A DNA stretch of 64,000 nucleotides, taken from positions 62,001 through 126,000 of the forward strand of contig NMRA01000623.1 in the NCBI GenBank assembly GCA_002633005.1. The letters are read 5' to 3'. The translations under genes were made by a program, and so were the position numbers. Below are positions 3,412 through 64,000 of this stretch, piece by piece. The first letter of the stretch is position 1. Every line of letters starts with the position of its first letter. Under the pieces are notes generated by a model. The model ran no database searches. It was not told the origin of the DNA and saw nothing but the letters and a program-made list of their open reading frames with translations. This DNA is from Phoronis australis. Its lineage: Eukaryota; Animalia; Phoronida.

Positions 3412-4778
3412 ATTTAGGAGAACGATGAAAGGTGGTGGATGTAGCCTACATATATTTCAAAAAATTGTAAATGTTACCAGCACTGCTGCTTTATCAAAAC
3501 ACTCGTATAAAACAGCTACTCAGCTTGGAATTTTTATTTCATTTCCAAATTAGCCATGGCCAAACTTCAATGAATATTAATCTTCTCTTTCTTATGATTG
3601 TGCAGTAGGTGACCCCATTTTCAAAGTTCAACTTTCATCATGTGTTATCATTATCTCCCCTTGTTGGCTCAACTTCAATTTTTCACAAATCACGACCTCA
3701 GAGAAAACGTTTATATCTGTCTGGTAATCATCTTGTAGGATGAATCCAACCAATCACCCAAATTTACTACATGGTTATTTACTCATTGTTATCTGGAAAG
3801 ATGAAATGTGCCACAAGTTCCCACAATATCCCAAGCTTTGTAAACTTATGCATAAGAGGAAGTGTTCACTTTCAACCAACATCATATCCCTGCATCCAAA
3901 CAAAACAAAACATTAGCTAAAAATTTTAATGAATACTATGAAGAACAACGTACAAAAATGGTTTGCAATAATCTGCGTCAAAATCACATCAAGACAAACA
4001 TAATCATGAAAAATAGCGCCTAGAACATTTAATACACTGATCAGGACAGTCACGCATACAGGGCTCGCCTCCCTCTAGCACAGACAGACAGGGACTTTAC
4101 TAATACTTTTCTGAAGGCAAGATTGTGACAGTTATGAAATTAAGGCTGAATTCTTCAATGTTTTTCTCCATAACTCAAAAAATATTAATGACCTGATGTC
4201 AACCACCAAACGTCCCTGCCAGAAATATTAAATAATAAATTTTGCTTTATAAAAAAGCCCCAGAAGAAACAAAACTAGACTAACGACAGCAGCAATAGCA
4301 AAAGCAATAAAAGAGCAATAATAATAATTATGGTTATATAAATGTAAATACAATCGAAAATTTCATGATTCAAAAATTCAAAATGTTCAATCAAAATGGC
4401 ATAATTTCCATAAGTACACCAGTAATCACAAACAATAGTTGCAAGCACACAGTGGTATGTTATGAGATTCCCTCCAGCTCATCTATTTCCTGCTAGAAGC
4501 GTCCAGGTCATGACTATTACTGACCTCAACTGTCAATCTGCCCATCTTGGCCACATCCTCTCCCCTTTACTGTCCACTAGCTCCATCTAGAGGTGGTCCT
4601 AGTTATGACTTGTACGGATCTGAACTGTCAATCTGCCCATCTTGGCCACCTTTCCCACCCCTTTACTGCCCACTAGCTCAACCTAAAAGTGGTCCAGGTC
4701 GCGACTAGTACTAATATGAAATGTCAATCAGCACATCTTGGCCAAATTCCCCTCCCATTTACAGCCCACTAGCTCCAC

Positions 4779-7700
4779 CTAAAAGTGGTCCAGGTCGCGA
4801 CTAGTACTGATCTGAACTGTCAATCTGCCCATCTTGGCCACATTCCCCTCCCGTTTACTTCCCACTAGCTCGACCTCCATCATCTGATTATCCACCTCAT
4901 CTGTCGCAGTGAACACGTGTTTTCCCATGTACTCATCCTTGAGCACATTGGCGTTCCAGATCTGTAAGCAGATTTATCAAGATCGTCAATAGTGGGCATT
5001 GCGCATTTAACAGGTTCATTTCCAAAGTTTCTTTAGAAGAGAATTTCTTTATGCCAAATAAAATATTCTAAAATTAAGACATCATGTGTAATGTTGAGGT
5101 GGGTATTCACCAGGCTGAGTATTAAAAATTCAGGTGAAAAAAACATGATGCATTATCAGTCATTGAAAGATTTGTCTAAAATTGATATCCTGCCCTCCTG
5201 GCATGTAGGTTGTCTCCTGTATGACATTTTGAATTTGAGTTAATTGAATCCCGGCGATGGACAGTTCAGAGACCATCGTATCCATTGTAATTTGATACCT
5301 AAGCGAATGATGGAAATTTCTTGAAAATTCGTGAAAAAACTACCATGCAAAAGGTTAAGCAAGCATACTAACGTCCATTCTTGTGCGTATCTGTTGGCAA
5401 AAACTTGAACTCAAGCTTTCATTTTTACTTGACATTGGCTCAGTTGCATTCAAACATATCGTCATTTTTGCTTGATGAGAAAAAGCTTCCCTCGAACAAT
5501 TAACAACAATGGCGCAGACTTGTCACCAATAAGCAACGCGCTGTATGGTTGTTATCTACTCCAACGAATAACAGAGCTAGTTTTAAACAAACCAAGGCTC
5601 AGCAAAAATAGAGTTATTTATAAACTGACTAAGACACGAGTCTACCAAGCTTGAAGCTCATAGAATGAATTTTTGATTCAATTTTTAAGACATAGAAGCA
5701 CAATTTTTCTATAACAAAAATCCAGAGTTCTGTGCCATTGTATTTTAAGAATTCTGAAACAAATACAGACAATCTGTACTGGCAGACAGTTGCTAGGCCA
5801 CCATGACTGCACACACTCGCACACATACACCCACAGTGACAGTGCACAGTGCCTGCACACACATACTCACACATATACCCACAGTGACAGCGCACAGTAC
5901 CTGCACACAAACACGCACATATACACTTACAATGACAGTGCACAGTACCTGCACACACCACACACACTCACACATACACCCACACTGACAGTGCACAGTA
6001 CCTGCACACACACATGCATACATACACCCACAGTGACAGTGCACAGTACCTGCACACACACACACACTCACACATACACCCACAGTGACAGTGCACAGTA
6101 CCTGCACTTTAATAGGCTTCTGAGCACTTCTTCTGAAGAATATACACGACTCATTCCAATCTGGATCAACTGTGTCCTTGATAGTGCGAGTACGAACACT
6201 GGTGCCCTCACAAGAAACTATGCAGTATGGATCAGCTCCTGTGAATCACAAAATACAAACTATGCAGTATGGACCAGCCCCTGTGGATCACAAAATACAA
6301 ACTATGCAGTATGGACCAGCCCCTGTGGATCACAAAATACAAACTATGCAGTATGGATTAGCCACATGCTTGGTAGCTTACTAATTTATCCTAGCACCAT
6401 GGCAACCACTGAAGTGATGGGTTAGTGAGACTGGAATTCACTGTTTCCATTCCATAAGCAATGTAAGTTAATGTGTTAGGTTCTCCTACCGCAGTCCAGG
6501 CTTACCTCCCTGTTTGTCCTGCTTCTCAAGGCCAACAGCTTTAACCAGTCTCACTCTTGTTGTCATTATAGGAGCTGTGAAGAACAAACAGGCACACATG
6601 CCAGGCTGTGGGTGATCCTCAGATAATTCCCTGGAAAGGTTCAAATTATGCGAGTTGAGCAGCAAACCAAATAACGACAAATGATTCAACTCTGAACACT
6701 TTAGCAGTTAACTGCCCAAGTTCGATGTTAGATAGAACCCAAGCAGTTAACAGTGCACAACAGACGGGACTAGCTGTAAGGGCCCAGTCACAGCAAACTC
6801 GTTCTCAAAATATTCAAGCTCAAGTTAGCAGTTTCATGAAAATGAACTTGGGGTGGGTGCAGACGTGCAAAAAACAAGCCTCGTATATTACTAACTTTGA
6901 ATCATTAGATGAACTTGTATACAATCGCAGAAGGAAGTTGCCCGGGTGACCTCTGTCAAATGTGGCAGGTACAATGACGTATCTTCCTTTCTTGAGAAGA
7001 TGTCTCAAGAAGATTCCCCGACTGTTTTTAAACACGGATGACTTGACCATTTCTTGAGGCTGGTGCAAGCGGTAGCTGCGGTTTTCTTCCACCTTTAACA
7101 CAAGTAGAACGTTGATACACAGTCACAGAGATCTGGACCCTACTGTTACACTATGGGTAATTCAGTGTTTTCCCAGAACACTCGTCTGATTGTAATACAA
7201 TCATGAGGTTGAAATACAATTACACCCGTTGCTGCTAATGAGACCACATACGTTATTAGAAAGAGAAACTGTTCAAAAAGCGGAACGATGAACAGAGTAA
7301 TTTTCCACCCTTCACATAAAATTTTAAGAGAGCATTCAGCAATTTTAATTTTTTGAAGTGGTTTAAGTTCAAGCATTTGGTTTCACTCACAACAGTATAT
7401 CAAGTGTCCATTCTCGTCCTCTACCTCTGTCAATAAACACAACAACACAAAAGTAATACCTTCATCACATGGAAGCCTATCGTATCTTTTTCTGCATCCT
7501 TGCCACGGCCGACTTTCTGTTCAAGAGATATCATTACATCCTCATCTTCTTCTTCGGTAATAGTAAATGCATACTGCAAAGAAGAAAGTGAAGCTAAAAG
7601 TAAGTGTGTTTCTTATGTTACAAAACGTAAATTAAAAAGTAGAGGAAAGTGCTTAGATTGATCACACAAAGTGACCATCATAAATTTATTCCAGCCATTC

Positions 7701-10700
7701 ACCTTCCAGCACAACACTTATCCACATAGTCCAGTTCTAAAGCGGCTATAAATCTTGACTTCTACCATAAAAACCAACTTCTATTCGGACCACTAACTGT
7801 TATGAACTTGGCCTCAAATTGTTTTTTAGCAAAATTAGTATTTCAGGGCTTTGAAGCACAGTTGGTTATTGCTTGAGACCAGGCTCTACAAGTTGGCTTG
7901 TCACGACAGGTCACTGAGTGCACCGAGTATAGTCGCAAGGAATAACAAAATGAAAGCTCTCTACAAACCCAGCAAACACTTCTCAAGTTGAAATCAATTT
8001 TCTGGTGGTTAGTAGTCTAAATCAATAGTTAGGTTCTTGGACACACTGTAAGTTCATCATCCATTTTAGGTATGTCTACCAGGGGAGGGTTTGTTGGAAG
8101 GGCGAGTAACCAGTGAGGAGGGTTCAGGACTCGTGTGGTTCACTACACTTGATGGTTTCTAACAAACTTGTTCCTTAACGTATGGATTTCTAAGAAATGT
8201 GCCACTTTACCTGTGGATTTTTCAGGAATGTGTCCTTGTTATTAGCACAGCCTCCTGCACGGTCAGGCTCCGTCCACGTACCATGGTAGACAGCCTCGTG
8301 ATACTTCTTATGAACGCTGAGGAAGGAGGTATTCACTACACGACAGATGGTCATGTTCATGAAGTAACGGCAGTAATCCTCCAGCAGCATCCTAATAAAT
8401 AAGTCAATGGCTTAGAAACCCTTGAAACACTGTGCAGGTTAGTTAAGTGAATTAACGAGATCGAGCAGAGTGTTGATGTGCACTCACCATGTGCATCAAA
8501 AACAGCACTGATACAAGGGATGGTCACTTTTTGAACATTCTCCCTACAGGGACCAATACAAGTTAACTTAAAATAGCCTCCAGTGGCTGGTTGCATGAAA
8601 CGATCCCAAATAGGGACTCGACTAAGGTCCCTAAGTCTTTTTGAATATTTGTGTCTTTATGGACTCGCAAATGCAATATTTTTCTATCATTTCATCATTA
8701 TTATGAGCTCCTTTTTATTAATGACATTTTCTAATAATATAACTAAAAACTGAGTCCAGAGTTCATTGAAAGTAAATAGGGACTCAGTCCTTAAATTTAG
8801 GGGTGTTGTATGAAAAGATCCCTGATTATTTTTGATAATATTGACAATTCAACATAGAGTTTACTCTCAATTTTGTATCAAAGTCGAAAGTTGACTTAGT
8901 AATGAAACTTAAACAATACAAGAAAGGGCGATCGATGTTTTCACAAGTCCAAAAACACACAGGAGATTTAGGGAACTTAGTAGATTTAGGGAACTTAGTC
9001 AAGTCCCTATTTGGGACTTTTTCATGCAACCGGGCACAGGGGCCGCAAAGCAAGTCAGCTAAGCTCTCCTCAACTACAACACATCCCTCACCTTTCCTCA
9101 CGATTCGTCAAGCAGTTCAGCAGGTATTGAGGTGGATGAAAAAACAGATACAAATATGGTAAAAAGGCCACTAGGGGGCACAGAGAAACGGGGCATGTGC
9201 CGTCATCTTCCTGACAGTAACTTATTTGCCAAATTTCATAAAGATCCTCCACACAACTTGATAGATATTGAGCCACAGGTATAAAGCTGCCAGTCATGCT
9301 CTTCATATTGTAAGTCGTGTTCTCAGTAGGAACACACACATGGTCATTTTCAAAACTATTTGTCATGCAGTTTAGAGGATAGAGAGGTGGACCACAAAAG
9401 AACAGGACTCAAAAAATAAACATTCAAGAGTAACACAGAGCATTGGTATGCACCCACCGTGTGAATCACAAACAGTGCAGACACAAGAGATGTTCCTTAT
9501 TTCATACCTTCCCACTAAACAGAGCAATGTTAGTAAACTAGCTGGTGCAAAGCAAGTCAGCAGTGCTCTCCTCCATAGTCACACACCTGCCAATTTACAT
9601 CAAGAACTTTGGAGGATAGAGAGGCAGAAGACAAAGGACACAAAAACAGAAAGGCCACTAGGAGACACAACGTGGGTCAAATCCACCTGAAACAGGACCA
9701 GTGCTGCCGTCTATAATACTACAAACATCCATCAAGGATTATTGGTAGATATCAAGCCTAACACAAAGAAAACAAAATTGCCACCAGGCAGCTCCATAGC
9801 TAGTTGCATATGTCCCATCAATCGTACTTGTCTCAAAAGATCCATCAAGGAATCTGAATTGAGCCACAAACAAACAAAATAAAATCACCAAAAAAGGATG
9901 CCACACCATTAGGACCCATGCAAAAATCATCCTCAGCAATGCACTTCCAAGTGAAAACATATAATCTTAAATTCATATCTATTTGTCAAATTTCATGAAA
10001 ATCTGTCAAGGAACTTCGAAAACACAGAGGCAAGTGTACAAATTAAAATTGCTACTAAGGGGCACATCTGTAGTCAGATTCATTAGAATATTTCGCTCAT
10101 GCTGTCCCATCCATGATTAAAACATGCATGTCTGCAAAAATTCACGAAAATCCATCACAGGGTTTTAGAGATACAACAGTGAACGTTGGACGCCAGACGG
10201 GGATTATTTTTGTGTGGGCGCAAAATGTGATTAGGAGCAAGTGGATTATTGTGGCAGAAATAAATTATTACTTTTACGTCCATTTGTAAAATAGGTTTGA
10301 TCACAAAAAAGGGAGTCTTATCCGAATAGATTGTAAAATACATTTTGCCTTAAGCCCCCCCCCCTCAAGGACAAAAGTTTCTATTGAAAAGTTTCTGAGC
10401 ACCTGTACACACCTCTTGGCTGGGGCAACCTAACTATTAAGTGCCTGGAGTTACTCACCAGAATTCACCATCATCCTCAAAGGTTAGGCCAATCTTTTCA
10501 CGGTCAGATGAACTAATTTTATTCCACTCAGCTGACCTGAAAAATACATTGTTGAAACAAAGCCTTAGCAAACCTCAAGATATCCCATACACAAATACTC
10601 ATGTAGACAAATTCATTGACAATTCAGAAACAAAACTCACATGTAAGCTCATCAAATAATTATATATCCCTTTAAAGAGCCTCTAGCCTCACTCACCCAT

Positions 10701-12703
10701 CACTGAATCTGCCCTTCCACTCCACTTCACCCCAGGGATTCCGTAGACGGACCATAGCAAGCTTCTCCTTATTAAAAAGGTTGAACAAACCCGTCCCAGA
10801 CAGCGCTACTCGCTTCACTGCAGTGATTCCATAGGCATGACCTTTGACCAACCCGACATCAGTGTGGGCCTCCATTTCTGATGCGCTTGTTGCCTATGTT
10901 AAAGGAAATAACTAACATGTTCTCATGAACAGTCACTAGACTATTGATAACACTAGTGCAATAGAACACTACATATAGTCACTAGATCACTGATAACACT
11001 AGTGCACTAGAATACTACATTATTTTGAAATCTGAAATATCTGATGCAGTAATCATAGTCAAAAAATTGTTTTTACAGCATTCAGAATGTTGTTTTTGAA
11101 TGACTCCATGAACTCAACATAAAAGATTTTTATTTCATTACAAAAAGGCACTTGGATCTATCTCCATCGCGATAACTTGACACAGAGTCCAGTAACAATA
11201 GTGATACACTTACAGGTATAGCTGCAGCCATCAGAGACCTTCTGTCCATCTCTTTACTCATCACATGGTACAGTTCTCCCTGCTTCTCGCTGTCCTCGCT
11301 GTAACCTTGGGTCAGGTCAATAGGTTCAGCTATACCGCCCGTGAAGTCAACAAGAGCCTCTTCCAGGCCCCCACCGTCCAGGGCTTCATAGCATCCAAAT
11401 AACCTGGGGTAACACAAGATTTAGAATGAATCACGAGTTTAAACATACGAGAAACTCATATGACAGTAGAAATTTTTAAACACACTTACAAGAAACTACA
11501 AATTACCAGATCCATTAAGTATTCAGGTAGAACAAGCACAAAGGCTGCACACTATTTGGGACAACACAGATCACACAGTGAGATTAAGAGAGGATTGTGG
11601 GACACTACAGGTGTATACTGTAATTATCTGTGTAAATGCCCACAGGTTCATTTTCAATATTTTCTTTGGGACATCCATATTTCTCAGCTGAACACCTACC
11701 ACTACTTTTTTGCTGTGTACATTTACTTATATAAATACAGCAATACACTAGACTATGAATGCCAGTTGCAGTAGGTCTTTCAGTGATGTGCAGGACTGTG
11801 AATCACATAATGTAACATTTAGAATTAAGAACATGAATGTGATCTACAAGCATACTCTTCCCAGTGACATTATTTAAGTGTGTGAATAAATCCATCCTCT
11901 CAACATGCAAACCAACTTTTGATTGAAACCACTCATCATTATGAAATTGGCCTCGATTTGTTCCTTTGTCAAACTGGAGGTGCTTTTAGTTTGTAGAAAG
12001 AACGGACAAGTTTGCTATAAGTCGGTTGCCTCGGCCAATCATTTATGCGCTTAGCATGACCATAAAGAATAACAAATTGTCAGTTCTTCGAAAATTCAAA
12101 AATCACTTCTCATCTGAGCATAGATTATACAACAGATTTGCGACTTCGAAATCCTAGAGGAGGCACCACCCTCTAAACATAGCAAACTCAGCTTCCCGTT
12201 GGAGTATTGCGACGGGAAATTCTTGCATCAATTTTACTGTCCAGCATAGCAGACGACATACTTGCCGGAAGTAAAGCGCGCTATGTCCGCCAGGTGTCAC
12301 TAGTGAATAGCGACATCACGGTTTATGCGTAAGATCACAGATGTCTTCCATTGAAAATATATAGAGTTGGCAGTACATGTACTACAGTCTGAGTACGGAA
12401 AGTGTTAATACCAATTTTACAGTCTATATGGTAAGCAGTGTAAATCAAAAGTTCGCTTCTTGGATGGGACACAGGTTTAAAGCCGTTTACTCACTTTGCA
12501 TAAGCCTTTTCCAGAAGCGCACTCCAAAACTCATTGCGCTCTTTAGAATGAACAAAGACCAGCTCTCCATTAATGGTTGGCAGCTGGTCGTCAATGACAA
12601 CATCCACCCACTCGCCGTAGCGGCAGAACTGGAAGTGAAAGATGCCAGCGTAATTCTCCGGCTTCTCTGCATTCCATTCTTGGTCTTTCCAGTTTGGAAT
12701 TAC
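4779..12703 (-). CDS. CAPN5: Second, 5'-truncated copy of the calpain-5 gene (exons 3-12 only); probably an allelic haplotype or false duplication
   Basis: Exons 12703-12495, 11403-11214, 10893-10697, 10536-10459, 8391-8211, 7573-7460, 7092-6896, 6630-6506, 6238-6102 and 4961-4779 have the same sizes and splice sites as the full copy. It lacks the ATG exon and the catalytic-Cys exon and stops at the N at 13001. Confidence 0.85.
5806..6107 (-). repeat. Same donor-spanning minisatellite in the first calpain copy (5 extra copies, 48-53 nt spacing)
   Basis: gtgcag|GTactg recurs at about 6100 (true), 6048, 6000, 5947 and 5899, with a GC variant at about 5851. Confidence 0.9.
6216..6360 (-). repeat. 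Same 42-nt acceptor-spanning minisatellite in the first calpain copy (4 units including the exonic one)
   Basis: ctatgcagtatgg occurs 4 times at 42-nt spacing. The true acceptor is at 6238/6239. Confidence 0.9.
8581..9039. mobile_element. MITE-like non-autonomous DNA element with about 55-nt imperfect TIRs (second copy about 18570-19032)
   Basis: Left cagtggctggttgcatgaaacgatcccaaatagggactcgactaaggtccctaagtc is the reverse complement of right gatttagggaacttagtcaagtccctatttgggactttttcatgcaaccgggcacag, with few mismatches. No clear TSD. Confidence 0.7.
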
Positions 12704-13142
12704 CTAAAACAAACATTGATTATGTTAAAGTAAAACATTCATCACCAGTGTTAAAGCTGCACAGTATCGGCCTGTTTAGCAGACTAAAAACAAAAACTGA
12801 AGGCTTTTTACTCACATCTTAGACTATAGTACATGGACCGCCAACTCCATTGTTTTCAATGGACGAAATCTGTGACGTTACGCATAAGCTGTGATGTCAT
12901 TATTCACTAGTAACTCCTGGCGAAATTAGCAAGTGTTACTTCTGGCAAGTACGTCGTCTGCTAATCGTGCTCGGCTGTTGTGTGGTTGAGTGCCAAAACT
13001 NGGAGGGGATTGGAACGAACCATTTAGGAGAATGATGAAAGGTGGTGGATGTAGCCTACACATATTTCAAAAAATTGTAAATGTTACCAGCACTGCTGCT
13101 TTATCAAAACACTCGTATAAAACATCTACTTAGCATGAAGTT

Positions 13143-13148
13143 TTTATT
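13143..13148 (-). promoter_or_regulatory. Candidate AATAAA polyadenylation signal of calpain-5 (counterpart 3533-3538)
   Basis: TTTATT on the plus strand about 1.2 kb past the stop codon, present in both copies. Confidence 0.35.
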
Positions 13149-14086
13149 TCATTTCCAAATTAGCCATGGCCAAAAAACTTCAATGAATATTAATCTTTTC
13201 TTTCTTATGATTGTGCAGTATGTGACCCAATTTTCAAAGTTCAACTTTCATCATGTGTTATCATTATCTCCCCTTGTTGGCTCAACTTCAATTTTTCACA
13301 AATCACAACCTCTGTCTAGTAATCATCTTGTTGGATAAATCCAACCAATCACCCAAATTTACTACATGGTCATTCACTCATTGTTATCTGGAAAGATGAA
13401 ATGTGCCACAAGTTCCTACAATATCCCAAGTTTTGTAAACTCATGCATAAGAGGAAGTGTTCACTCTCAACCAACATCATATCCCTGCATCCAAACAAAA
13501 CAAAACATTAGCTAAAAATTTTAATGAATACTATGAAGAACAACGTACAAAAATGCCTTGCAATAATCTGCGTCAAAATCACATCAAGACAAACATAATC
13601 ATGAAAAATAGCGCCTAGAACATTTAGTACACTGATCAGGACAGTCACGCACACAGGGCTCACCTCCCTCTAGCACAGACGGACAGGGACTTTACTAATA
13701 CTTTTCTGAAGGCAAGATTGTGACAGTTATGAAATTAAGGCTGAATTCTTTAATGTTTTTCTCCATAATTCAAAAAATATTAATGACCTGATGTCAACCA
13801 CCAAACGTCCCTGCCAGAAATATTAAATAATAAATTTTGCTTTATAAAAAAGCCCCAGAAGAAACAACACTAGACTAACGACAGCAGCAATAGCAAAAGC
13901 AATAAAAGAGCAATAATAATAATTATGGTTATATAAATGTAAATACATTCGTAAATTCATGATTCAAAAATTCAAAATGTTCAATCAAAATGGCATAATT
14001 TCCATAAGTACACCAGTAATCACAAACAATAGTTGCAAGCACACAGTGGTATGTTATGAGATTCCCTCCAGCTCATCTATTTCCTG

Positions 14087-14471
14087 CTAGAAGCGTCCTG
14101 GTCATGACTATTACTGACCTGAACTGTCAATCTGCCCAACTTGGCCACATCCTTTCCCCTTTACTGCCCACTAGCTCCATCTAGAGGTGGTCCTAGTTAT
14201 GACTTGTACTGATCTGAACTGTCAATCTGCCCATCTTGGCCACCTTCCCCACCCCTTTACTGCCCACTAGCTCAACCTAAAAGTGGTCCAGGTCGCGACT
14301 AGTACTAATATGAAATGTCAATCAGCACATCTTGGCCACCAAATTCCCCTCCCATTTACAGCCCACTAGCTCCACCTAAAAGTGGTCCAGGTCGCGACTA
14401 GTACTGATCTGAACTGTCAATCTGCCCATCTTGGCCACATTCCCCTCCCGTTTACTTCCTACTAGCTCCAC
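14087..14471 (-). repeat. About 96-nt tandem repeat (4 units) copying the last 31 codons plus stop of calpain-5 into its 3' UTR
   Basis: The coding unit [31 protein letters not shown] (14471-14376) is followed by three degenerate copies, each ending in TAG (14277, 14181, about 14087). The equivalent array in copy 1 is at 4493-4874. Confidence 0.9.
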
Positions 14472-17400
14472 CTCCATCATCTGATTATCCACCTCATCTG
14501 TCGCAGTGAACACGTGTTTTCCCATGTACTCATCCTTGAGCACATTGGCGTTCCAGATCTGTAAGCAGATTTATCAAGATCGTCAATAGTGGGCATGGCC
14601 CATTTAACAGGTTCATTTCCAAAGTTTCTTTAGAAGAGAATTCCTTTATGCCAAATAAACTATTCTAAAATTAAGACATTACATGTAATGTTGAGGTGGG
14701 GGTTCACCAGGCAGGGTATTAAAAATTCAGGTGAAAAAGAACATGATACATTATCAGTCATTGAAAGATTTGTCTAAAATTGATATCCTGCCCTCCTGGC
14801 ATGTAGGTTGTCTCCTGTATGACATTTTGAATTTGAGTTAATTGAATCCCGGCGATGGACAGTTCAGAGACCATCGTATCAATTGTAATTTGATAGCTAA
14901 GCGAATGATGGAAATTTCTTGAAAATTCATGAAAAAACTACCGTGCAAAAGGTTAAGCAAGCATAACGTCTATTCTTGTGCGTATCTGTTGGCAAAAACT
15001 TGAACTCAAGCTTTCATTTTTACTTGACAATGGCTCGGTTGCATTCAAACACATCGTCATTTTTGCTTGATGAGAAAAAGCTTCCCTTGAACAATTAACA
15101 ACAATGGCGCAGACTTGTCACCAATCAGCAACACGCTGTATGGTTATTATCTACTCCAACAAATAACAGAGCTAGTTTTAAACAAACCAAGGCTCAGCAA
15201 AAATAGAGTTATTTATAAACTGACTAAGACACAAGTCTACCAAGCTTGAAGCTCGTAGAATGAATTTTTGATTTAATTTTTAAGACATAGAAGCACAATT
15301 TTTCTATAACAAAAATCCAGAGTTCTGTGCCATTGTATTTTAAGAATTCTGTAACAAATACAGACAATCTGCACTGGCAGACAGTTGCTAGGCCACCATG
15401 ACTGCACACAATCGCACACATACACCCACAGTGATAGTGCACAGTACCTGCACACACATACTCACACATACACCCACAGTGACAGTGCACAGTACCTGCA
15501 CACAAACACGCACACATACACCCACAATGACAGTGCACAGTACCTGCACACACACACTCACACATACACCCACAGTGACAGTGCACAGTACCTGCACTTT
15601 AATAGGCTTCTGAGCACTTCTTCTGAAGAATATACACGACTCATTCCAATCTGGATCAACTGTGTCCTTGATAGTGCGAGTACGAACACTGGTGCCCTCA
15701 CAAGAAACTATGCAGTATGGATCAGCTCCTGTGGATCACAAAATACAAACTATGCAGTATGGACCAGCCCCTGTGGATCACAAAATACAAACTATGCAGT
15801 ATGGACCAGCCCTTGTGGATCACAAAATACAAACTATGCAGTATGGACCATCCCCTGTGGATCACAAAATACAAACTATGCAGTATGGACCAGCCCCTGT
15901 GGATCACAAAATACAAACTATGCAGTATGGATCAGCTCCTGTGGATCACAAAATACAAACTATGCAGTATGGACCAGCCCCTGTGGATCACAAAATACAA
16001 ACTATGCAGTATGGACCAGCCCCTGTGGATCACAAAATACAAACTATGCAGTATGGACCAGCCCCTGTGGATCACAAAATACAAACTATGCAGTATGGAT
16101 CAGCTCCTGTGGATCACAAAATAGAAACTATGCAGTATGAACCAGCCCCTGAGGATCACAAAATATAAACTATGCAGTATGGACCAGCCCTGTGGATCAC
16201 AAAATACAAACTATGCAGTATGGACCAGCCCCAGTGGATCACATAACACAAACTATGCAGTATGGACCAGCTCCTGTGGATCACAAAATACAAACTATGC
16301 AGTATGGACCAGCCCCTGTGGATCACAAAATACAAACTATGCCGTATGGATTAGCCACATGCTTGGTAGCTTACTAATTTATCCTAGCACCATGGCAACC
16401 ACTGAAGTGATGGGTTAGTGAGACTGGAATTCATTTCCATTCCATAAGCAATGTAAGTTAATGTGTTAGGGTCTCCTACTGCAGTCCAGGCTTACCTCCC
16501 TGTTTGTCCTGCTTCTCAAGGCCAACAGCTTTAACCAGTCTCACTCTTGTTGTCATTATAGGAGCTGTGAAGAACAAACAGGCACACATGCCAGGCTGTG
16601 GGTGATCCTCAGATAATTCCCTGGAAAGGTTCAAATTATGCGAGTTGAGCAGCAAACCAAATAACGACAAATGATTCAACTCTGAACACTTTAGCAGTTA
16701 ACTGCCCAAGTTCGATGTTAGATAGAACCCAAACAGTTAACAGTGCACAACAGATGGGACTAGCTGTAAGGGTCCAGTCACAGCAAACTCGTTCTCAAAA
16801 TACTCAAGCTCAAGTTAGCAGTTTCATGAAAATGAACTTGGGGTGGGTGCAGACGTGCAAAAAAACAAGCTTCGTATATTACTAACTTTGAATCATTAGA
16901 TGAACTTGTATACAATCGCAGAAGGAAGTTGCCCGGGTGACCTCTGTCAAATGTGGCAGGTACAACGACGTATCTTCCTTTCTTGAGAAGATGTCTCAAG
17001 AAGATTCCCCGACTGTTTTTAAACACGGATGACTTGACCATTTCTTGAGGCTGGTGCAAGCGGTAGCTGCGGTTTTCTTCCACCTTTAACACAAGTAGAA
17101 CGTTGATACACAGTCACAGAGATCTGGACCCTACTGTTACACTATGGGTAATTCAGTGTTTTCCCAGAACACTCGTCTGATTGTAATACAATCATGAGGT
17201 TGAAATACAATTACACCCGTTGCAGCTAATGAGACCACATACGTTATTAGGAAGAGAATCTTTTCAAAAAGCGGAACGATAAACAGAGTAATTTTCCACC
17301 CTTCACATAAAATTTTAAGAGAGCATTCAGCAATTTTAAATTTTTGAAGTGGTTTAAGTTCAAGCATATGGTTTCACTCACAACAGTATATCAAGTGTCC

Positions 17401-20400
17401 ATTCTCGTCCTCTACCTCTGTCAATAAACACAACAACACAAAAGTAATACCTTCATCACATGAAAGCCTATCGTATCTTTTTCTGCATCCTTGCCACGGC
17501 CGACTTTCTGTTCAAGAGATATCATTACATCCTCATCTTCTTCTTCGGTAATAGTAAATGCATACTGAAAAGAAGAAAGTGAAGCTAAAAGAAAAAATAA
17601 GTGTGTTTCTTATGTTACAAATCTACATTAAAAAGGAGAGGAGAGCGCTTAGATTGATCACACGAAGTGACCATCAAACATTTATTCCAGCCATTCACCT
17701 TCCAGCACAACACTTGCCCACATAATCCAGTTCTAAAGCGGCTATAAATCTGGACTTCTACCATAAAAACCAACTTCTATTCGGACCACTGTTATGAAAT
17801 TGGCCTCAAATTGTTTTTTTTAGCAAAATTAGTATTTCAGGGCTTTGAAAGACAGTTGGTTATTGCATGAGACCAGGCTCTACAAGTTGGCTTGTCACGA
17901 CGGGTCACTGAGTGCACCGAGTATAGTCACAAGGAATAACAAAATGAAAGTCCTCTAAAAACCCAGTAAACACTTCTCAAGTTGAGATCAATTTTCTGGC
18001 GGTTAGTCTAAATCAATAGTTAGGTTCTTGGACACACTGTAAGTTCATCATCCATTTTAGGTATGTCTACCAGGGGAGGGTTTGTTGGAAGGGCGCGTAA
18101 CCAGTGAGGAGGGTTCAGGACTCGTGTGGTTCACTACACTTGATGGTTTCTAACAAACTTGTTCCTTAACGTATGGATTTCTCAGAAATGTGCCACTTTA
18201 CCTGTGGATTTTTCAGGAATGTGTCCTTGTTATTAGCACAGCCTCCTGCACGGTCAGGCTGCGTCCACGCACCATGGTAGACAGCCTCGTGATACTTCTT
18301 ATGAACGCTGAGGAAGGAGGTATTCACTACGCGACAGATGGTCATGTTCATGAAGTAACGGCAGTAATCCTCCAGCAGCATCCTAATAAATAAATCAATG
18401 GCTTAGAAACCCTTGAAACACTATGCAGGTTAGCTAATTGAAATAACAAGATCAAGCAGTGTTGATATGCATTCACCATGTGCATCAAAAACAGCACTGA
18501 TACAAGGGTTGGTCACTTTTTGAACATACTCACTACAGGGAGCAATACAAATTAACTTAAAATGGCCTCCAGTGGCCGGTTGCATGAAATGATCCCAAAT
18601 AGGGACTCAACTAAGGTCCCTAAGTCTTTTTGCATATTTGTGTCTTTATGGACTCACAAATGCAATATTTTTCCATCGGTTCATCTTTATTATGAGCTCA
18701 TTTTTATTAATGACATTTTCTAATAATATAACTAAAAACTGAGTCCAGAGTTCATTGAAAGTAAATAGAGACTCAGTCCTTAAATTGGGGGTGTTGTATG
18801 AAAAGACCCCTGATTATTTTTGATAATATTGACAATTCAACGTAGAGTTTACTCTCAATTTTGTATCAAAGTCGAAAGTTGACTTAGTAATAAAACTAGA
18901 ACAATACAAGAAAGGGCAATCGATGTTTTCACAAGTCCAAAAACACACAGCAGATTTAGGGAACTTAGTAGATTTAGGGAACTTAGTTGAGTCCCTATTT
19001 GGAACAGTACTGTTTCATGCAACCGGGCACAGGGTCCGCAAAGCAAGTCAGCTAAGCTCTCCTCAACTACAACACATCCCTCACCTTTCCTCACGATTCA
19101 TCAAACAGTTCAGCAGGTATTGCGGTGGATGAAAAAACAGATACAAATATGGTAAAAAGGCCACTAGGGGGCACAGAGAAACAGGGCATATGCCGTAATC
19201 TTCCTGACAGTAACTTATTTGCCAAATTTCATAAAGATCCTTCACACAACTTGATAGAAATTGAGCCACAGGTAAAACGTTGCCAGTCATGCTCTTCATA
19301 TTGTAAGTCGTGTTCTCAGTAGAAACACACACATGGTCATTTTCAAAACTATTTGTCACGCAGTTTAGAGGATAGAGAGGTGGACCACAAAAGAACGGGA
19401 CTCAAAAACTAAACAAGAGTAACACAGAGCATTGGTATGCACCCACCGTGTGAATTACAAACAGTGCAGATACAAGAGATGTTCCTTATTTCATACCTTC
19501 CCACTAAACAGAGCAATGTTAGTAAACTAGCTGGTGCAAAGCAAGTCAGCAGTGCTCTCCTCCATACTCACACACCTGCCAATTTGCATCAAGAACTTTG
19601 GAGGATAGAGAGGCAGAAGACAAAGGACACAAAAACAGAAAGGCCACTAGGAGACAAAACGTGGGTCAAATCCACCTGAAACAGGACCAGTGCTGCCGTC
19701 TGTAATACTAATTATTTGCAAACATCCATCAAGGAATATTGGTAGATATCAAGCCTAACACAAAGAAAACAAAATTGCCATCAGGCAGCTCCATAGCCAG
19801 TTGCATATGTCCCATCAGTCGTACTTGTCTCAATAGAAACACATGTCAAATTTCATAAAGATCCATCAAGGAATCTGAATTGAGCCACAAACAAAAAAAT
19901 AAAATCACCAAAAAAGGATGCCACACCATTAGGACCCATGCAAAAATCATCCTCAGCAATGCACTTCCAAGTGAAAACATACAATCTTAAATTCATATCT
20001 ATTTGTCAAATTTCATGAAAATCTGTCAAGGAACTTCGAAAACACAGAGGCAAGTGTACAAATTAAAATTGCTGCTAAGGGGCACACCTGTAGTCAGATT
20101 CATTAGAATATTTCGCTCATGCTGTCCCATCCATGATTAAAACATGCATGTCTGCAAAAATTCACGAAAATCCATCACAGGGTTTTAGAGATACAACAGT
20201 GGACGTTGGACGCCAGATGGGGATTATTTTTGTGTGGGTGCAAAATGTGATTAGGAGCAAGTGGATTATTGTGGCAGAAATAAATTATTACTTTTACGTC
20301 CATTTGTAAAATAGGTTGATCACAAAAAAGGGAGTCTTATCCGAATAGATTGTAAAATACATTTTGCCTTAAGCCCCCCCCCCCTCAACGACAAAAGTTT

Positions 20401-44700: not shown

Positions 44701-45658
44701 ATAGTAGGTTAGGCCTATTTAGCTTCGATATCCCATTGTACACTACCTTCTCTCAGGTCAGATGGGATTTGAGCTTTAAAATTAAAACAACTAATAGTTC
44801 TTCGTTACCTGGCACTTCGAGCCTAGAAATCATTTCTAATGTGTCAGTAAGGAATAAGCTAAGACCAATTTTTAATGGTAAATGGTTTGAATCAAAAGTT
44901 AGAGTTCGACTAATTCTATGACAACTAGACTGCATCCCATATCTAGCTATTCGTACTTTGTCGCCTTCTTGTACCCGACATATCTCCTCTTCAGTAGACG
45001 GGTTGATGTCAGCGAAGGTTTTACCACTTGTTGAATTCACCCATTCGTTATTGATGAAGATCTGCAAGTAATGCACAAAAGGCGGACTTTTGGTTGCAAG
45101 AAGCAAAGAGTAGTGACTTAGTCAACGTTTATAAGGACTTTATATTAAATGTGGAAAACGACAAATCCGGTAACAATTTTCGAAAAGTACTTAACTGAAT
45201 AGATAAAAAATTAACACTCTTCATTCTATTTCGTCCTCGCACAAGGTCTGAGGGGCCACCGGGCATTGCCCAGTGCTTGACCGGCAGCCTGTATATCATC
45301 GGACCTAACCAGCTAAGCAAGTAGTGCTGGTGGGTCAGTTGCTTCATCATGGTGGTGACACAGCAGTCGACTGGGAGATTACTGTTTGAAATTGAAGGCC
45401 ACCCAACCGACTACTTCCGAAAAAACACCAACAAGTAGGTTTACTATAGGCCTATAAGTCCACAGTACCTAGCCTAAATTATTTCCGGCTACAGACAGAG
45501 AAGGGAGTAGGTCTATACGCTGACTCCTCGCGGCTACAGAAGCGCTGACTGTAAACTGCAATTACTGAATTCATAAGTTACTAGAAGCATTTAGAAGCAT
45601 AATAGCATATCAATCAACAAACTTGGGTGTGCTTCACCGTTGGACTCGGATATGTCAT
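35747..45658 (-). CDS. ALDH1: Aldehyde dehydrogenase, ALDH1/ALDH2 family, cytosolic ALDH1A (RALDH-like) type; 13 coding exons, about 488 aa
   Basis: Exons: 45658-45623 ([12 protein letters not shown]), 45061-44957 (IFINNEW), 43865-43725, 43601-43475, 42239-42178, 41822-41694 (WNFP...KPAEQSP), 40870-40757 (FTGS), 39691-39589 (LECGGKSP, catalytic Glu), 39197-39013 (GQMC, catalytic Cys), 38657-38493, 36486-36329 (EIFGP), 36104-36030 ([13 protein letters not shown]), 35813-35747. Total 1467 nt, all GT-AG, phases consistent. No mitochondrial leader is visible. Exon 1 is less certain than the rest. Confidence 0.93.
37008..37184. mobile_element. Short MITE-like element (CAGTGGCGGAT-type end; a related end occurs at 33111)
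   Basis: Starts cagatggcgaaatttgcaggg and ends cccttaaatccgccactg. cagtggcggatctagg at 33111 begins another GC-rich patch. Confidence 0.45.
37864..38118. mobile_element. GC-ended MITE, family with TIR CATGCGCGCACCCAG
   Basis: Begins catgcgcgcacccag and ends ctgggttcgcgcatg. Internal sequence is shared with the copies at 42823 and 50112. Confidence 0.75.
42823..43076. mobile_element. MITE of the CATGCGCGCACCCAG family, right end lost at poly-C/N (43076)
   Basis: Same left TIR and internal gggggctcgaatt...gtggact...gggggggctcgttcgagccccc as the 37864 copy. Confidence 0.7.
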
Positions 45659-48210
45659 CGTTCGTACGCTGAGCCTGAAAAGATTGCGAAGTGGAAAGGG
45701 CGTCTGATGTTCTCATCAAGCACTTGGCAGAATAGGCGTTACGTCCACTCAGGTCAAAGATATCTGTTTGAGTGGGTCACGCCGTCACTGAGATTAATTC
45801 TTCGATGATCCGTAGACTTGGCAGCCAAGTCAGTCCCGTCAATGATACTATAAAATCTTTGCCGGGCCCCGCTAAAATAGTCTGCAACTATGCAGTATCC
45901 GTCGGTACATGAAAACGAGGGCAATTGAAGCCTAGTATAGGCCTACGTTCAACACACGGGAAGGCTGGCTACTTTTCATCCGTGAGTTACGCAAGCTGGA
46001 GGTTCATAACCCGGCCGCCCTCCGGCAATCTCAAATCTCCGGTCTCTTACGATTGCAAGTCAGATTCAAGGTTTCGCAGTTGAGAGCTAACATCTACGCT
46101 CTCTGCTCACGCCTGTAATGATTGTGTGCGTGTGAACAAGTTAACCAGAAAAAGACCAATGGCTCAAATCAAAAATTTCAGTGCAGACGGAACGCAACCG
46201 CTTTATGAAATCCTGCGCACCACAGTGCTATGATGGCGCAAGCACGTGGCTAGGTCTGCGTAAGGATTTCTTTCGGGCATATATAGGTGACTGGCGTAGC
46301 TAGATGGAGATTCAAAAACAGGCCGGTGTGTGTGTGTGGGGGGGGGGATGCACCGCATAGGGGCTGACGGAAATCGGAAGGTGGTTCAGGTAGCACTAGA
46401 TGCAACTAGTGACGAACGGCGGGGGAACAGGGGTAATAAACGGTCAAGGGTTCAAAGCCCTGGGAACTAACATGTCATGCTCGATCGATCGCCTTCAGCG
46501 CAGTCGCACAAAATATGATTATATTAATTTAGTAAGCATCACAAGCCCGTAGCCCACGGAAAAGGTCCAGCCCCAGCCTATCCGTTAGAAATAGGCTATA
46601 TAGTAATGGACAACAACAACGACAACAACAAAAACAACAACTATTACAACAACAAAATTGTTGCAGCTACTGGTATAACTACATGCATAACTAAGTTAGA
46701 CGAATTTGGTTCTGATTCAAAGCGCTTCGCTTAATCATCGGGCTCTACCCGGCCCCAGGGCCCAACTTCGCCCGAGTCATGGTGTTTGCGCAGATGACAG
46801 GATCCAGCGTACGTACGTAGAGCCGGAGGCTTTATGTCATTCATTGGCATTAAACGTGAGTGGTTGCTACACCATTATCGTCGATATTATCGTTGACCAA
46901 ATGAGTGAAGGTTACGACGTTAAATTACGTGCCGTAAGTTGATTCTTGTTAGAGGCGTAAAGTAATTATTTACGCCGTAAAGTAATTATTACATTACGAC
47001 GTAAAGTACGTATTTGCGGCGCTAAAGATTGCTTTACGCTGCAAATATTTACTTTACGCAGCAAATAATTACTTTATGCCACCGATAATTTGTTTATGCT
47101 GCACTTAATTACGCCTGTAACAAGAATTACGTTACGCACGTAATTTAACGGCGTAACGTTCACCCATTTGGACAACGATACATCATAAGGTAACAAGGGA
47201 TTCTAGAAATAAATGTCTGTAACTGTTAAGCTTTAAAACAGCGAAATAGCCCTCAAAAAGTAGTGTGTCATGAATTTCTGAAAACCAACCAAGAAACAAA
47301 ACAGCAGAAAATGTGATTGTTATCAGCTATCGTGGTGTACTTGCTAGCATAGTAGGGCAAGGTGCAGACATTTCAAATTTAGAAATGAGAGTGATCGTCA
47401 AATGATTGTTGTCCATTCAGTGTCCACTTTCTGTGTGAATTGGTGGACTGACATGCATGCGGGTGTACGCATGTGTGCGTTTTCATTCTTTGATATTCAG
47501 CATACGCCGACGCAGTCTTATGTCGTTGCTCAAACAACCAGACATTAACTACCGTGTGTTCTTAGAGAAAAGCAAGTCTAGACCTAATGAAACGTTGGTC
47601 AAGTGTTCCTTTGTCCATCAGTGACAATGGTGCACAGCCTCGCAGACTTCATACGAGCAACAAACATGATGCAAAAGATTTCCAAGGTTACGTGTCACTA
47701 TTCCGAAGGTTCACTTCTCGGAAAGTCCACTACTCTGAAGTTTCATTACTCAGACAATATTCATTACTCTGATTGTCTTCTAATGAGTCGGAACTGACAT
47801 GAATGAAATATTGTTTTTGTATCCATTTAGTAACCATTTGAAAGGAAAACTATGCAAGAGTTGAATAGTTCTTCAAACATTAATTACATTGTTTGCAAAT
47901 GAGCTTCGTTCCAATCACTGCCAATCGTGACTTCTTGAATCTAACGACTCAATCTCAAGCAGGGACAAAATCTGGGGCACGGGTCAGGGCTGCGGCGACC
48001 TGAAGACTGAATGGGACTCTCCTGTGAAGACTGGCTGGGACAGGGTAGCATTCTAAGTACATTTAATTTCGACCACATCCGTAGGGTGAGGTAATTATTC
48101 ATCAATGTCCTTAATTCGTATTCTTTTAAAAGGATAGTAAACCCTGTGATGATTTCCACCAATCCTCGTTCTGTCACCTGCTAATGCATCACTGATGTCA
48201 ACCTTCCAAG

Positions 48211-51192: not shown

Positions 51193-52758
51193 AAACAAGA
51201 CTATACGTGGAGCGTTGAAATGCGCCCACGACAGCAATGCAAACAGTATGCTGAGGGGTGGACCGAAGGCGTATTAACGTGTACACACTAGACGGCACAG
51301 TATACGTCAAATACATCCCAAAATGGATAGATGCTATCACCATCTTAGCAAAACTTGTTTATCACATTCCAATAAAAACTGTCAAAGTACTCTGAAGATA
51401 CAGATGCAAACGTAAAAATGAAATTTGCCACTTGGAGGTACAGCAGTAGTCAGAGCCGTCCAAAAGTCTTAGGTAGCAGCAGTAGTTACGTTTATGATAT
51501 AAAACTAATTCTTGCAAAATTTTACAAAGAACTTTCAAATGAGTAAGGCGACACAGTCGACGATCGAAGCAAAAGACAAAATTCGCCACCAGGAAGCGTC
51601 ACAGTTGTACATCCGTCCACAAATCAGCGTCTTCTTATCATGAACCAAAAAGACACTTGAAAAATAAAAAGGCATTAGATGATGCAACAATACACCAAAC
51701 CCATAAGAAAAAGGAAGACAGTCGTCACCTCCATCGAGTGAACTCCGAAAGGGCAAACGAAAACAACTAAAACTGCCACTAGAGGGCCCAATGGTAGTCG
51801 AATTTGTCTGAACGTGTCGTAAGTTGTCAGCTCCATAGGAGCACGTCTGCAGCTGTAGACGGAAAAACACAATTAGGGGCGTCATCGTCCAAATATCAAC
51901 GTCAGACGTGGCCTCCTAATCAGAAACACATCTGCCTGCCAATTTATCCTTCAAGCAGTTTGGCAGATAAGATGGGCGTCAAAAATGGACTTGAAACTGT
52001 TAAAAATCTCCACTAGGAGGCGCACAATACGCAAAATCTGTCCGAAAATGGAAAGGCATTGTCGGCACCTTAATAGAAACCTATTTGACAAGTTCCATAA
52101 AAATCCATCAGTGAACACAGGAAAACGTAAAAAATAAAATTGCGCTACAAGGGGCACACCAATCGTTGGATTTTGCTGTCGTCATCTGTTGACAACTCCA
52201 TAGAAACACATCTGTCAAATTTCACGAGGTTCCTGCGCAGGGTTAGGAAATACAGCCGTGAACGCAAAGTGAAACTCCACTAAGGGGTGTCAGAGTAGTC
52301 AAAGACGCCCGAAAATGATCATCAAGAAAAATGACCCGCCAATTTTCATAACAATCCTTCCAGCGGTTTCGCAGATGAGAGAGGCAGATGCCAAAACAAA
52401 CTCGACAATTTTAATAAACGGCCACTAGGTGACTCAGAAAAGTGTCAAAAACGTGGGAAATGTAAAGGTGTTGTCGCCTTCATAAGAGGAAGCTATCTGT
52501 CAAATTTTATGAAAACCCATCCAAGAATTGCGAAGATACAGAGGCAATCATAAAAAATTAATTTCCACAAAGGGGCATAGCTGTAGTCGGATCAGTCCGA
52601 AAGTTGTCGTCATCCCTCGCCAGCTTCATAAGAACACGCCTGCCAAATCTCATAAAAATCCTGTGAGGGGTTTAGGAGATACAGCTGCGGATGCCGGATG
52701 CCCAGATGGAGATAACGGCAATATGCATCCACATATGAATATGTGGGCGCACAAAAAA
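51193..52758 (+). mobile_element. HINE/DINE-like element of the same family (apparently complete, about 1.57 kb)
   Basis: 5' aaacaaga...gagcgttgaaatgcgcccac (sub-terminal IR at 51221-51229), internal ccactag-containing subunits, and 3' hairpin tgcatccacata-tgaa-tatgtgggcgcacaaaaaa. Confidence 0.62.
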
Positions 52759-52795
52759 GCTGAAGGGCTAGAGACCTGAATCAGTGTTTAGCAGT

Positions 52796-52869
52796 GTACC
52801 CCAAAGGAACTCAACCCACGACTTTGTACACTGGAAGCACTAAACAGTTATCCCACTACGCCAAGCTGC
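52796..52869 (-). mobile_element. tRNA-derived SINE head or degenerate tRNA-like relic
   Basis: Minus strand gcagcttggcgtagtgggataac...aagtcgtgggttgagttcctttggggtac has A-box-like TGGCGTAGTGG and B-box-like GGTTGAGTTCC at Pol III spacing. No clean cloverleaf. Confidence 0.35.
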
Positions 52870-53696
52870 TTCCTTTATCTCAAGCTGCCAATATTCTGTA
52901 ATGACTGATGATAACCAATGTTATAGTCCTGTCACCTTTTTTCAGGTAAGCTCACTCCCAAAAAGCAAACTGTGTGAAAGGGTGGCATCCGAATCTATAC
53001 ACCACCATCAAAAATGGAGGTTCACTACACCAGCACTGTAACTAGAAACTATGGTTAGACTTCATAATTCCCTGGGCATGCGATAATTGGTAACTGTATA
53101 TGGGTACCCATGTCTATTATGTTTGTACATGACCAGAAAACCACATCAACAAGCTGCAGAAGAAAATAATAATGAACGATTACGTAATATCAAGGTATTT
53201 ATATACATGTATATTTTGAAAATATACAGCAAAGTTATAAAACATATGTATGGTAAGTGACCAGTTTTTATATTAATATTATATTATTTAAGAGCTCATT
53301 AAAACATTAAAGTAAGTAATCTATTATTTATAGAGTTTACACTTTAAACACTGGTAACCAAGCTACTCAGACAACTCAATCATCAATTTTGAACAACTGT
53401 AAAATTAACAGTTGCCCTTTCTAATAGGTAATACGCTTTGCTCTCAGGCTTCACATAAATAAATAGTGTAAATCAAGCAATATGTTGTTTATCTACAAAT
53501 GGTCATTTTGTCAACTGATTCAAAAATGAGAAAATTGCTATGTTACCAAGTAACAGTAGTTCAACAAACTACCAAAAATGAGATATTAGAGTGAGTCTAC
53601 AGTGAGAATCTATGCAAAAAATACAAATGATACCAAAATGTATATATTACAAACAGTCCAGCACAATTCATTGTCATCAACAACGTAACACACATG

Positions 53697-53821
53697 ATTT
53701 CAACCATTATACAGAGGGACCTAAGTCCTAATCATAAGATTTCAACCATTATACAGTTGGACTTAAGTCCTAATCATAAGATTTCAACCATTATACAGTG
53801 GGACTTAAGTCCTAATCATAA
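53697..53821. repeat. 42-nt tandem repeat x3 downstream of the CYFIP stop (probable 3' UTR)
   Basis: atttcaaccattatacagtgggacttaagtcctaatcataag x3. Confidence 0.85.
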
Positions 53822-54151
53822 TTATAAGTAAAAACCCATTTGCTAATCACTGTTAATGTTAACATCTTATTAAGTAAACCTAGTTCACCCATTAAATACA
53901 CAAGGCAAAGATTACTATGTTCAGCTCTCGAGGAGATAAGCAAGTATTGTAGACATCACTACAATAGCAGTTTGTACTGACAGAACTAGAATATGACGAG
54001 GGGGCCGACTAGAATGTCATGACCATAGGGGAAGGGGAACAGGCCACCTGGGTCCAGTCTAAATCCCTCTATGTACAACATTTAAGGATGTTGCAAACAG
54101 GAGTTCAATCATTGCATTGGAAGAGTGCAGGAGGGGGGTGGAAGTAGGGAG

Positions 54152-63087
<8,936 letters not shown>

Positions 63088-63739
63088 CTACAAAGTAGCA
63101 CAGCTTTTATTAATGTAACAGTCTTAAAAAGACACTTCCAAAACACTTAATAATAAAACATAAAACTAAACACCTTCAAGCACACTTTGAAAAGTTTAAA
63201 ACAGGGCACGAACAACAAAAGAACATCAAGCGATCATAAATTAGCCTTCTACTACAAGAAAACTTCCGATTCAGACCACTTTCATGGTCTCAAATTATTC
63301 TTTAGACAAATTGGAGGTGATTCCAGGGCTTCAAAAGAAGACAGTTTACTATTGAGTGAGATCAAGCTATGTAAAATGGTTTGTCATGGCATAACACTTT
63401 ATGTGGTGAGCATCGTCTCCAGGAATAACCAATAGCCACTTCTTTGCAAACTCAGATATCGCTTTTCATAAGAGCAAGGAAGACGTTAAGACCAATCTTA
63501 TAATGGTACGTGAAGTAAATCAAAAGTTTGCTTCATGGACAGAATGTAAGTTTATATGACTGTGCTTTTAACTTTAAACATTGACATATGTCTAGATGAC
63601 ATGATGAGATCTATTTGGTGCAGGCAGGCAAGTAGCAGTTATCCAGAGAAAGACATATAAATAGTTGCCAGGCCCAGCCATCATAACAACCAGCTTCAGT
63701 AGCAAGTTCTGTAATCATGGACCCATAACTACAATCAGC

Positions 63740-64000
63740 ATATTAACTGGACATACGTCTGCTTGAGCAGAGCCTCATATTTATTAGGTCAGCATACCTG
63801 GACATACCTCTACTTGGGTAGCCTTATATCTATTAGGTCAATGTACCTGGACATGCCTCTACTTATTAAGCAGAGTCTCGTATCTATTTAATCAGCGTAC
63901 CTGGACATGCCTCTGTTTGAGCAGTCTCGTATCTATTTAGTCAGCGTACCTGGACATGCCTCTGTTTGAGCAGAGTCTCGTATCTATTTAGTCAGCGTAC
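63740..64000 (-). repeat. About 51-nt tandem repeat copying a CYFIP exon 3' end and its donor site
   Basis: Minus-strand unit aaatagatacgagactctgctcaaacagaggcatgtccag|GTacgctgact encodes NRYETLLKQRHVQ, the CYFIP peptide directly preceding the [12 protein letters not shown] exon at 63087. GT positions are 63999-64000, 63948, 63899, 63845 and 63796. Confidence 0.88.

Follow-up and report, generated by a model that had tools for sequence, protein, structure and literature searches.

We analysed a 64,000-nucleotide (nt) stretch of the Phoronis australis assembly (contig NMRA01000623.1; hereafter the window, GC content 40%), which carries three modelled genes and, at exon edges of two of them, minisatellites whose units touch a splice site or a stop codon. 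All three genes lie on the minus strand, and each has an open frame (637, 481 and 507 codons). Calpain-5, a Tra-3 type calpain with a C2 domain, occupies 14376-25756 and was modelled by tblastn with homologues and an exon model (12 coding exons, 637 amino acids); judged by frame and homology, its intron 2 appears to begin with GC (23741-23742) and would be a GC-AG intron. A predicted ALDH gene lies at 35747-45658 (13 coding exons, 481 amino acids; modelled from open frame and splice consensus). The putative last 11 coding exons of a CYFIP gene, assigned by homology and splice consensus, lie at 54152-63087 (507 amino acids), and this gene runs on beyond the window end at 64000. A preliminary description, made from the letters of the stretch, had pointed to five tandem arrays at boundaries of calpain-5 and CYFIP. 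All five were recovered at these boundaries with Tandem Repeats Finder (TRF), with units cut on the sense strand and exon models open: at the acceptor (unit 42 nt) and the donor (48 nt) of calpain exon 11, at the calpain stop codon (96 nt), at the CYFIP donor 56912/56911 (29 nt), and at a CYFIP donor at or beyond 64000 (about 51 nt). Two further statements of that description hold as well: the cut units share no sequence with each other, and the coding frames are intact in the calpain-5, CYFIP and ALDH models. A blind probe of the 72 modelled coding-exon boundaries, outside of which the donor of the 51-nt array lies, returned strong echoes at four (both sides of calpain exon 11, the calpain stop, and the CYFIP donor at 56911), together with one chance-level score in ALDH (19 against a shuffle maximum of 18).

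The window contains the calpain arrays in two versions that differ in copy number. Self-BLAST revealed a pair of near-duplicates of about 10 kb (3396-13000 and 13002-23114, 95.7% identical) that hold calpain exons 3-12 and the 3' untranslated region (3'UTR). The second calpain copy, at 4779-12703 on the minus strand (about 95.7% identical), contains exons 3-12 only, and eight of its nine introns were recovered as RNA joints from reads mapped to 4400-14000. By TRF, the 42-nt array has 15.4 copies in the calpain copy at 13002-23114 versus 3.4 in the second copy, and the 48-nt array 4.0 versus 6.0; an intronic 46-nt array likewise differs between the two (2.0 copies in one, 3.7 in the other). Because a single assembly N at 13001 falls exactly at the join of the two calpain copies, and because these differ at only 7 of 537 codons (four synonymous, three non-synonymous), the assembly has probably set two alleles of one locus in tandem, which would make the second copy an allele rather than a true duplication. 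It was counted once in all statistics. Inverted repeats of 147 nt (82%) flank calpain exon 3 (12247-12393 and 12818-12963, and again 22361-22507 and 22932-23077); they stem from high-copy elements, with a depth in the short-read data (X1) that reaches thousands at these positions.

The acceptor-side array at calpain exon 11 spans 15705-16350 on the minus strand, with the exon-11 acceptor at 15729/15728. Its 42-nt unit consists of 18 nt of intron end followed by 24 nt of exon 11. Twelve of the 14 upstream copies retain the AG; scored with splice-site matrices that were derived from 31 donors and 33 acceptors in the window, they reach 7.8-8.4, versus 7.8 at the true acceptor. Five units out, one copy matches the true site exactly, and use of a decoy acceptor would introduce an in-frame TGA. 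In the second calpain copy the array lies at 6215-6357 on the same strand, and its true acceptor at 6239/6238. Here 101 RNA reads (28, 20 and 53 from three runs) connect exon 10 with the exon-proximal acceptor; the shorter side of the joint spans 62-75 letters, more than the 24 nt common to the decoys. No decoy joint was present among the 15 of 170 RNA joints listed for the second copy (4400-14000). Read depth did not reveal an exon-11 excess either (34/21/56 in the exon-11 bin versus 40/25/84 over exon 10). Since the decoys score as high as the true sites, splice sites are therefore chosen by position. The outermost part of the array (16330-16357) is exon-like and has no preceding intron portion, and the original upstream intron sequence seems to have been lost or to have decayed; it contains a CTAAT that we take to resemble a branch point.

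On the donor side of the same exon (15592/15591), the 48-nt array occupies 15405-15597 on the minus strand and contains three decoy donors whose 9-mer is identical to the true one; its counterpart in the second calpain copy lies at 5810-6107, also on the minus strand (four identical decoys, one GC). The unit begins at the donor GT and its last 6 nt equal the last 6 nt of the exon, so that its exon share is just 6 nt. Use of a decoy would add 16 residues per unit without a stop in one calpain copy, whereas in the other a 52-nt first unit would cause a frameshift. RNA depth was 0.72/0/0 over the distal copies (bin 5684-6004), versus 21-56 for exon 11. At the CYFIP donor 56912/56911, a 29-nt duplication (56851-56914, minus strand, 2.2 copies by TRF) starts at the donor, has 3 nt in common with the exon end, and supplies one identical decoy donor whose use would shift the frame. 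The last array (63747-64000, minus strand) has a period of 49-54 nt, and TRF finds five units in view. Each unit of about 51 nt is made of 12 nt of intron start and a 39-nt copy of an exon end, which matches CYFIP homologues over 14 residues. An in-frame TGA stands ahead of every intact exon-end copy, the one closest to the window edge included, and the real exon and its donor therefore end at or beyond 64000. Both CYFIP arrays are described from the assembled sequence.

The 96-nt array (14095-14473, minus strand, 3.9 copies by TRF) differs from the others in its anatomy. Its unit comprises the final 31 codons together with TAG and has no non-coding part and no splice site; the stop codon ends at 14376, and three extra copies fall in the calpain 3'UTR. 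The corresponding array in the second calpain copy (4501-4876, minus strand, TRF) is transcribed: RNA depth over it (24/14/48, bin 4400-4720) is at the level of mRNA, and allele differences were seen among the three runs. Identity of its copies drops outward, from 0.88 to 0.85 and 0.82 in one calpain copy and from 0.90 to 0.84 and 0.84 in the other. The view that distal copies are more decayed, put forward in the preliminary description, is thus correct for this array and roughly so for the 51-nt array (0.96, 0.87, 0.73 and 0.82, with the unit at the window end as reference), whereas identity is irregular with distance in the 48-nt array and the 42-nt array shows no outward decay at all (Spearman -0.03, P = 0.93, 14 copies). 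In the same way, units were said to straddle a boundary and to extend into the non-coding side; this describes the 42-nt and 51-nt units well, but not the 48-nt and 29-nt units with their few exon bases, nor the entirely coding 96-nt unit.

Boundary arrays have to be seen against the number of minisatellites around them. Statistics were restricted to the non-redundant 51 kb (13001-64000) and to merged arrays with a period of at least 15 nt; one microsatellite and the array at 3264 were excluded. The 18 merged arrays of this region cover 6% of it. Five touch a boundary and 13, all omitted from the preliminary description, touch none. That description had proposed shuffled positions as the proof of enrichment, and within the window this proof failed: shuffling of whole arrays gave 3.1 expected versus 5 seen (P = 0.18), or 4.2 expected for the 14 genic arrays (P = 0.41), and the variants of plain shuffling overall indicated no enrichment (P = 0.18 to 0.58). 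Likewise, ALDH has no array spanning a boundary, as had been observed, but the contrast drawn from it (0 of 26 versus 5 of 47 boundaries) is not significant (Fisher P = 0.15). Read fairly, the counts indicate a genome rich in repeats, in which minisatellites are at most modestly in excess close to exons.

We consider it likely that ordinary tandem duplication, frequent and local in this repeat-rich genome, produced the exon-edge minisatellites as a harmless by-product, and that they were kept because only the copy joined to the rest of the exon is used and the proteins remain intact. In this process, slippage or unequal exchange would double a stretch of 29-96 nt, with short direct repeats as an aid. 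Minisatellite birth between direct repeats of 5-10 bp was modelled by Haber and Louis, whose model PMC6947457 summarises. Indeed, identical 6-nt stretches, one at the exon end and one at the unit end, bound the 48-nt array, and a donor-like CAG/CAA-GTA bounds the 29-nt array. The arrays would then lengthen and shorten like any variable number tandem repeat (VNTR), as the two versions of the calpain locus indicate if they are alleles. Splicing would pick the site adjoining the exon body despite decoys of the same sequence, which the RNA reads support directly at the 42-nt acceptor and indirectly at the 48-nt donor, and which we propose for CYFIP. When a unit ends in a stop codon, extra copies would land in the 3'UTR, as they do at the end of calpain-5. 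Duplications lying fully inside exons, or with decoys that are used, would be purged by selection, leaving only outward-growing arrays; arrays growing inside the frame would presumably alter the protein. One-sided growth is moreover largely built in, because by definition the true copy is whichever one continues into the unique remainder of the exon. Targeting machinery is unnecessary for such a course of events, and the count may be raised further by a mild minisatellite excess close to exon edges. Both selection that leaves outward-growing arrays and a spliceosome that passes over decoys had been suggested in the preliminary description, and both fit the data; for human F7 donors, decoy silence has been shown experimentally (PMC1557585, available text).

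Several observations weigh against ordinary duplication as the whole explanation. Under a null model in which no array may place more than one unit in coding sequence, 5 boundary arrays were seen versus 1.1 expected (P = 0.003), or 1.6 for genic arrays (P = 0.013); with the same selection-aware null, genic arrays only and the window-edge array dropped, 4 of 13 compare with 1.5 (P = 0.045). Of the 11 strong genic arrays, 10 are found no farther than 125 nt from a boundary, against an expectation of 4.7 (P = 0.001, with a post hoc threshold). No clear flanking direct repeat was found at the 96-nt array (only AG) or the 42-nt array. Furthermore, decoys in the calpain arrays may be used at a low level: the exon 11-12 joint is not among the 15 of 170 RNA joints listed, and reads are clipped at 5950-6094. 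The three RNA runs also come from other samples, whose array lengths may differ from those of the assembly.

The clustering of arrays near exons would be expected if minisatellite birth were itself biased to exon edges by a mutational process, such as polymerase slippage or repair synthesis coupled to the chromatin of exons, to transcription or to co-transcriptional splicing, with the boundary matches being the tip of a wider excess. Besides the count within 125 nt, distance tests without a threshold agree with such a bias, both for 10 strong arrays (P = 0.003) and for all 13 (P = 0.016) once the edge array is dropped, as does the position of the six strong non-touching arrays, which lie 17, 26, 59, 74, 125 and 331 nt from a boundary (P = 0.04). 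However, the nine non-touching arrays taken together give P = 0.19, and the distance test lacking the selection filter P = 0.18-0.38. All P values are flattering, as they come from a single window that was chosen for the pattern. The repeat mask, built from the window alone, is rough (2,679 of 33,243 genic bases), and changed the results little. The middles of introns carry poorly masked elements of high copy number, with X1 depths of up to 41,000, and for this reason old unique sequence is itself concentrated near exons. We regard a mutational bias toward exon edges as unlikely. The more general proposition, that births fall preferentially within about 100 nt of exon edges in this lophotrochozoan genome and that mirages (exon-intron-spanning minisatellites) across animals are its visible tip, is a tentative one, to which we would attach some, if rather low, probability.

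Local tandem duplication has to be set against three further explanations. If dedicated machinery recognising splice sites and stop codons, for instance RNA- or spliceosome-templated duplication, seeded arrays in this lineage, one would understand why three units (48, 29 and 96 nt) start or end 0-6 nt from the boundary, and why the strict null yields enrichment. Yet the anatomy of the units varies (exon share from 3 to 96 nt), different machines read splice sites and stop codons, two units preserve the unspliced junction of intron and exon DNA, and among the 10 near-boundary arrays exact overlap is not above chance (5 versus 3.0 expected, P = 0.14). The pattern is also not lineage-specific, with the same arrangement in lancelets, humans and chicken. 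Together with the plain shuffling, this speaks against the lineage-specific, boundary-targeted duplication that the preliminary description had offered as one of two options, and we give dedicated machinery hardly any credence. A function for the arrays, as ladders of alternative splice sites or as 3'UTR elements that tune calpain-5 and CYFIP output, would agree with the intact decoys, the open 48-nt units in one calpain copy, the presence of the 96-nt array in mRNA, and periods that are multiples of 3 in four of five cases. A frame-preserving excess was nevertheless rejected (4 of 5 versus 6 of 13 arrays, P = 0.31); decoy use would lead to an in-frame stop (42 and 51 nt) or a frameshift (29 nt, and the 52-nt first unit of one calpain copy); copy number is 4.5-fold apart between the calpain versions; and RNA is found at the proximal acceptor, with almost no depth in the donor array. 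A selected role is accordingly very improbable. Finally, the arrays could be assembly artefacts, through contig-edge stutter or mis-merged alleles. Single-N joins in the assembly, one at 13001 and one bordering a 35-nt array at 55701, and the twofold presence of the calpain region might raise this suspicion, but units are 73-98% identical with substitutions of their own, and allele differences appear in the three RNA runs over the 96-nt array. Contigs from short reads (X1) end at 4504 and 5815 and start at 6320, that is, they break at the three calpain arrays. We consider an artefact extremely unlikely, although assembled copy numbers may still be wrong.

Other repeats of the window were noted as well. 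Five intronic minisatellites lie 17-125 nt from a boundary without touching it: 20972-21133 (46 nt), 36232-36312 (36 nt), 55702-56175 (35 nt), 59690-59746 (25 nt) and 62597-62894 (59 nt). The 36-nt array starts 17 nt inside ALDH intron 11, and the 35-nt array adjoins the N at 55701, where its length may be cut short. Two arrays are not derived from coding sequence, namely a 42-nt array in the probable CYFIP 3'UTR (53696-53821, 331 nt past the stop) and a 32-nt array downstream of calpain (3264-3422). A degenerate interspersed repeat family is found at 27907-29161 and 51200-52700 and has relatives in several introns; its stretch at 27.9-29.2 kb is internally tandem, with a period of about 420 nt. 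Related A+T-rich short tandem and palindromic stretches flank ALDH (34070-34240 and 46920-47170), and may represent the ends of a non-autonomous DNA element or what is left of one.

The protein trees place the host of the arrays. In a tree of the CYFIP fragment (24 of 120 matches used, midpoint root, no named hemichordate, echinoderm or arthropod row), it grouped with annelid, nemertean, brachiopod and mollusc proteins (support 100/98), apart from three Branchiostoma rows; a lancelet (amphioxus) host was ruled out by this tree. The nearest relatives of calpain-5 were Owenia and Lineus (11 of 120 matches used, no lancelet row). The array host is thus likely a lophotrochozoan, to judge from these predicted proteins. 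In the literature searched, mostly without subscription papers, no lophotrochozoan mirage and no array seeded on a stop codon was found by title or abstract. The calpain acceptor offers a tidy acceptor-side case, with up to 12 equally strong decoy acceptors ahead of the real one, and the locus has a practical bearing on annotation, through decoy exons and a likely false gene duplication. If a birth bias to exon edges were true, it would bear on the origin of tandem repeats and on the tandem-duplication model of intron gain (PMC3087553, available text), and the genome would offer decoy ladders of donors and acceptors by the hundreds, a natural library in which to study splice-site choice and intron gain.

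The lead to amphioxus mirages given in the preliminary description proved right (PMC3087553). In the available text of PMC3087553 and PMC3902484, mirages are described in Adh3, the globins BflGb6 and BflGb9, troponin C and PGBD5, with units of 10-160 bp on acceptor and donor sides, haplotypes with 6 versus 3 copies (BflGb6), and normal splicing kept. The arrays studied here are similar in that tandem units with an intron-exon boundary occur on both sides, in several unrelated genes, with normal splicing. Reportedly, the Adh3 mirage of amphioxus also shows somatic length instability. Unlike the amphioxus cases, the present arrays have a lophotrochozoan host, one sits on a stop codon, and two units contain only 3-6 nt of exon. 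Sizes are within the range of mirages (periods of 29, 42, 48, 49-54 and 96 nt, 2.2-15.4 copies), and the 42-, 48-, 29- and 51-nt units each include their own boundary with GT or AG, the true exon of the 51-nt array being outside the window. Splicing is normal and the frame intact, by RNA for calpain and by frame alone for the CYFIP sites. Four arrays fit the definition of a mirage; the 96-nt array, which has no splice boundary in its unit, acts like a mirage but is a gene-end minisatellite.

Donor-side counterparts are known from human genes. The F7 IVS7 VNTR has a unit of 37 bp (the last 4 nt of exon 7 and 33 nt of intron) in 5-9 copies, its identical pseudo-donors are functional yet unused, with silence tested by mutation, and further splice-donor VNTRs are those of 6-16, CBS IVS13, lamin B2 and PDGF, two decoys being used in 6-16 and CBS (PMC1557585, available text). 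The 48-nt and 29-nt arrays closely resemble F7 IVS7, with a few exon bases, the intron start and identical pseudo-donors, and F7 uses the most upstream site. In contrast, acceptor-side and stop-codon cases stand outside the list in the available text of PMC1557585, and positional choice is seen here from sequence and RNA, the mutation test belonging to F7 only. In the exon stuttering of chicken dot chromosomes, exon-edge copies lie in adjacent introns and more than 90% start at the exon border; a genome-wide screen found an exon part of 20-187 bp, a median of 4 copies and a median span of 1,751 bp, in 3.4% of dot-chromosome introns, with large length polymorphism (PMC12954441, available text). 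Our arrays are likewise local tandem copies of exon edges, and an exon part of at least 20 bp is present in the 42-nt (24 nt) and 51-nt (39 nt) units, though not in the 48-nt and 29-nt units. They differ by their setting, which is not that of a GC-rich dot chromosome, and the chicken spans are longer. Variable internal tandem repeats with units of about 30 bp also occur at exon-intron boundaries of human segmental-duplication genes (PMC2812944, available text); those repeats alter gene structure through new introns and alternative transcripts, whereas no such change was seen here. Collectively, the five arrays extend a described class of repeats to another animal lineage.

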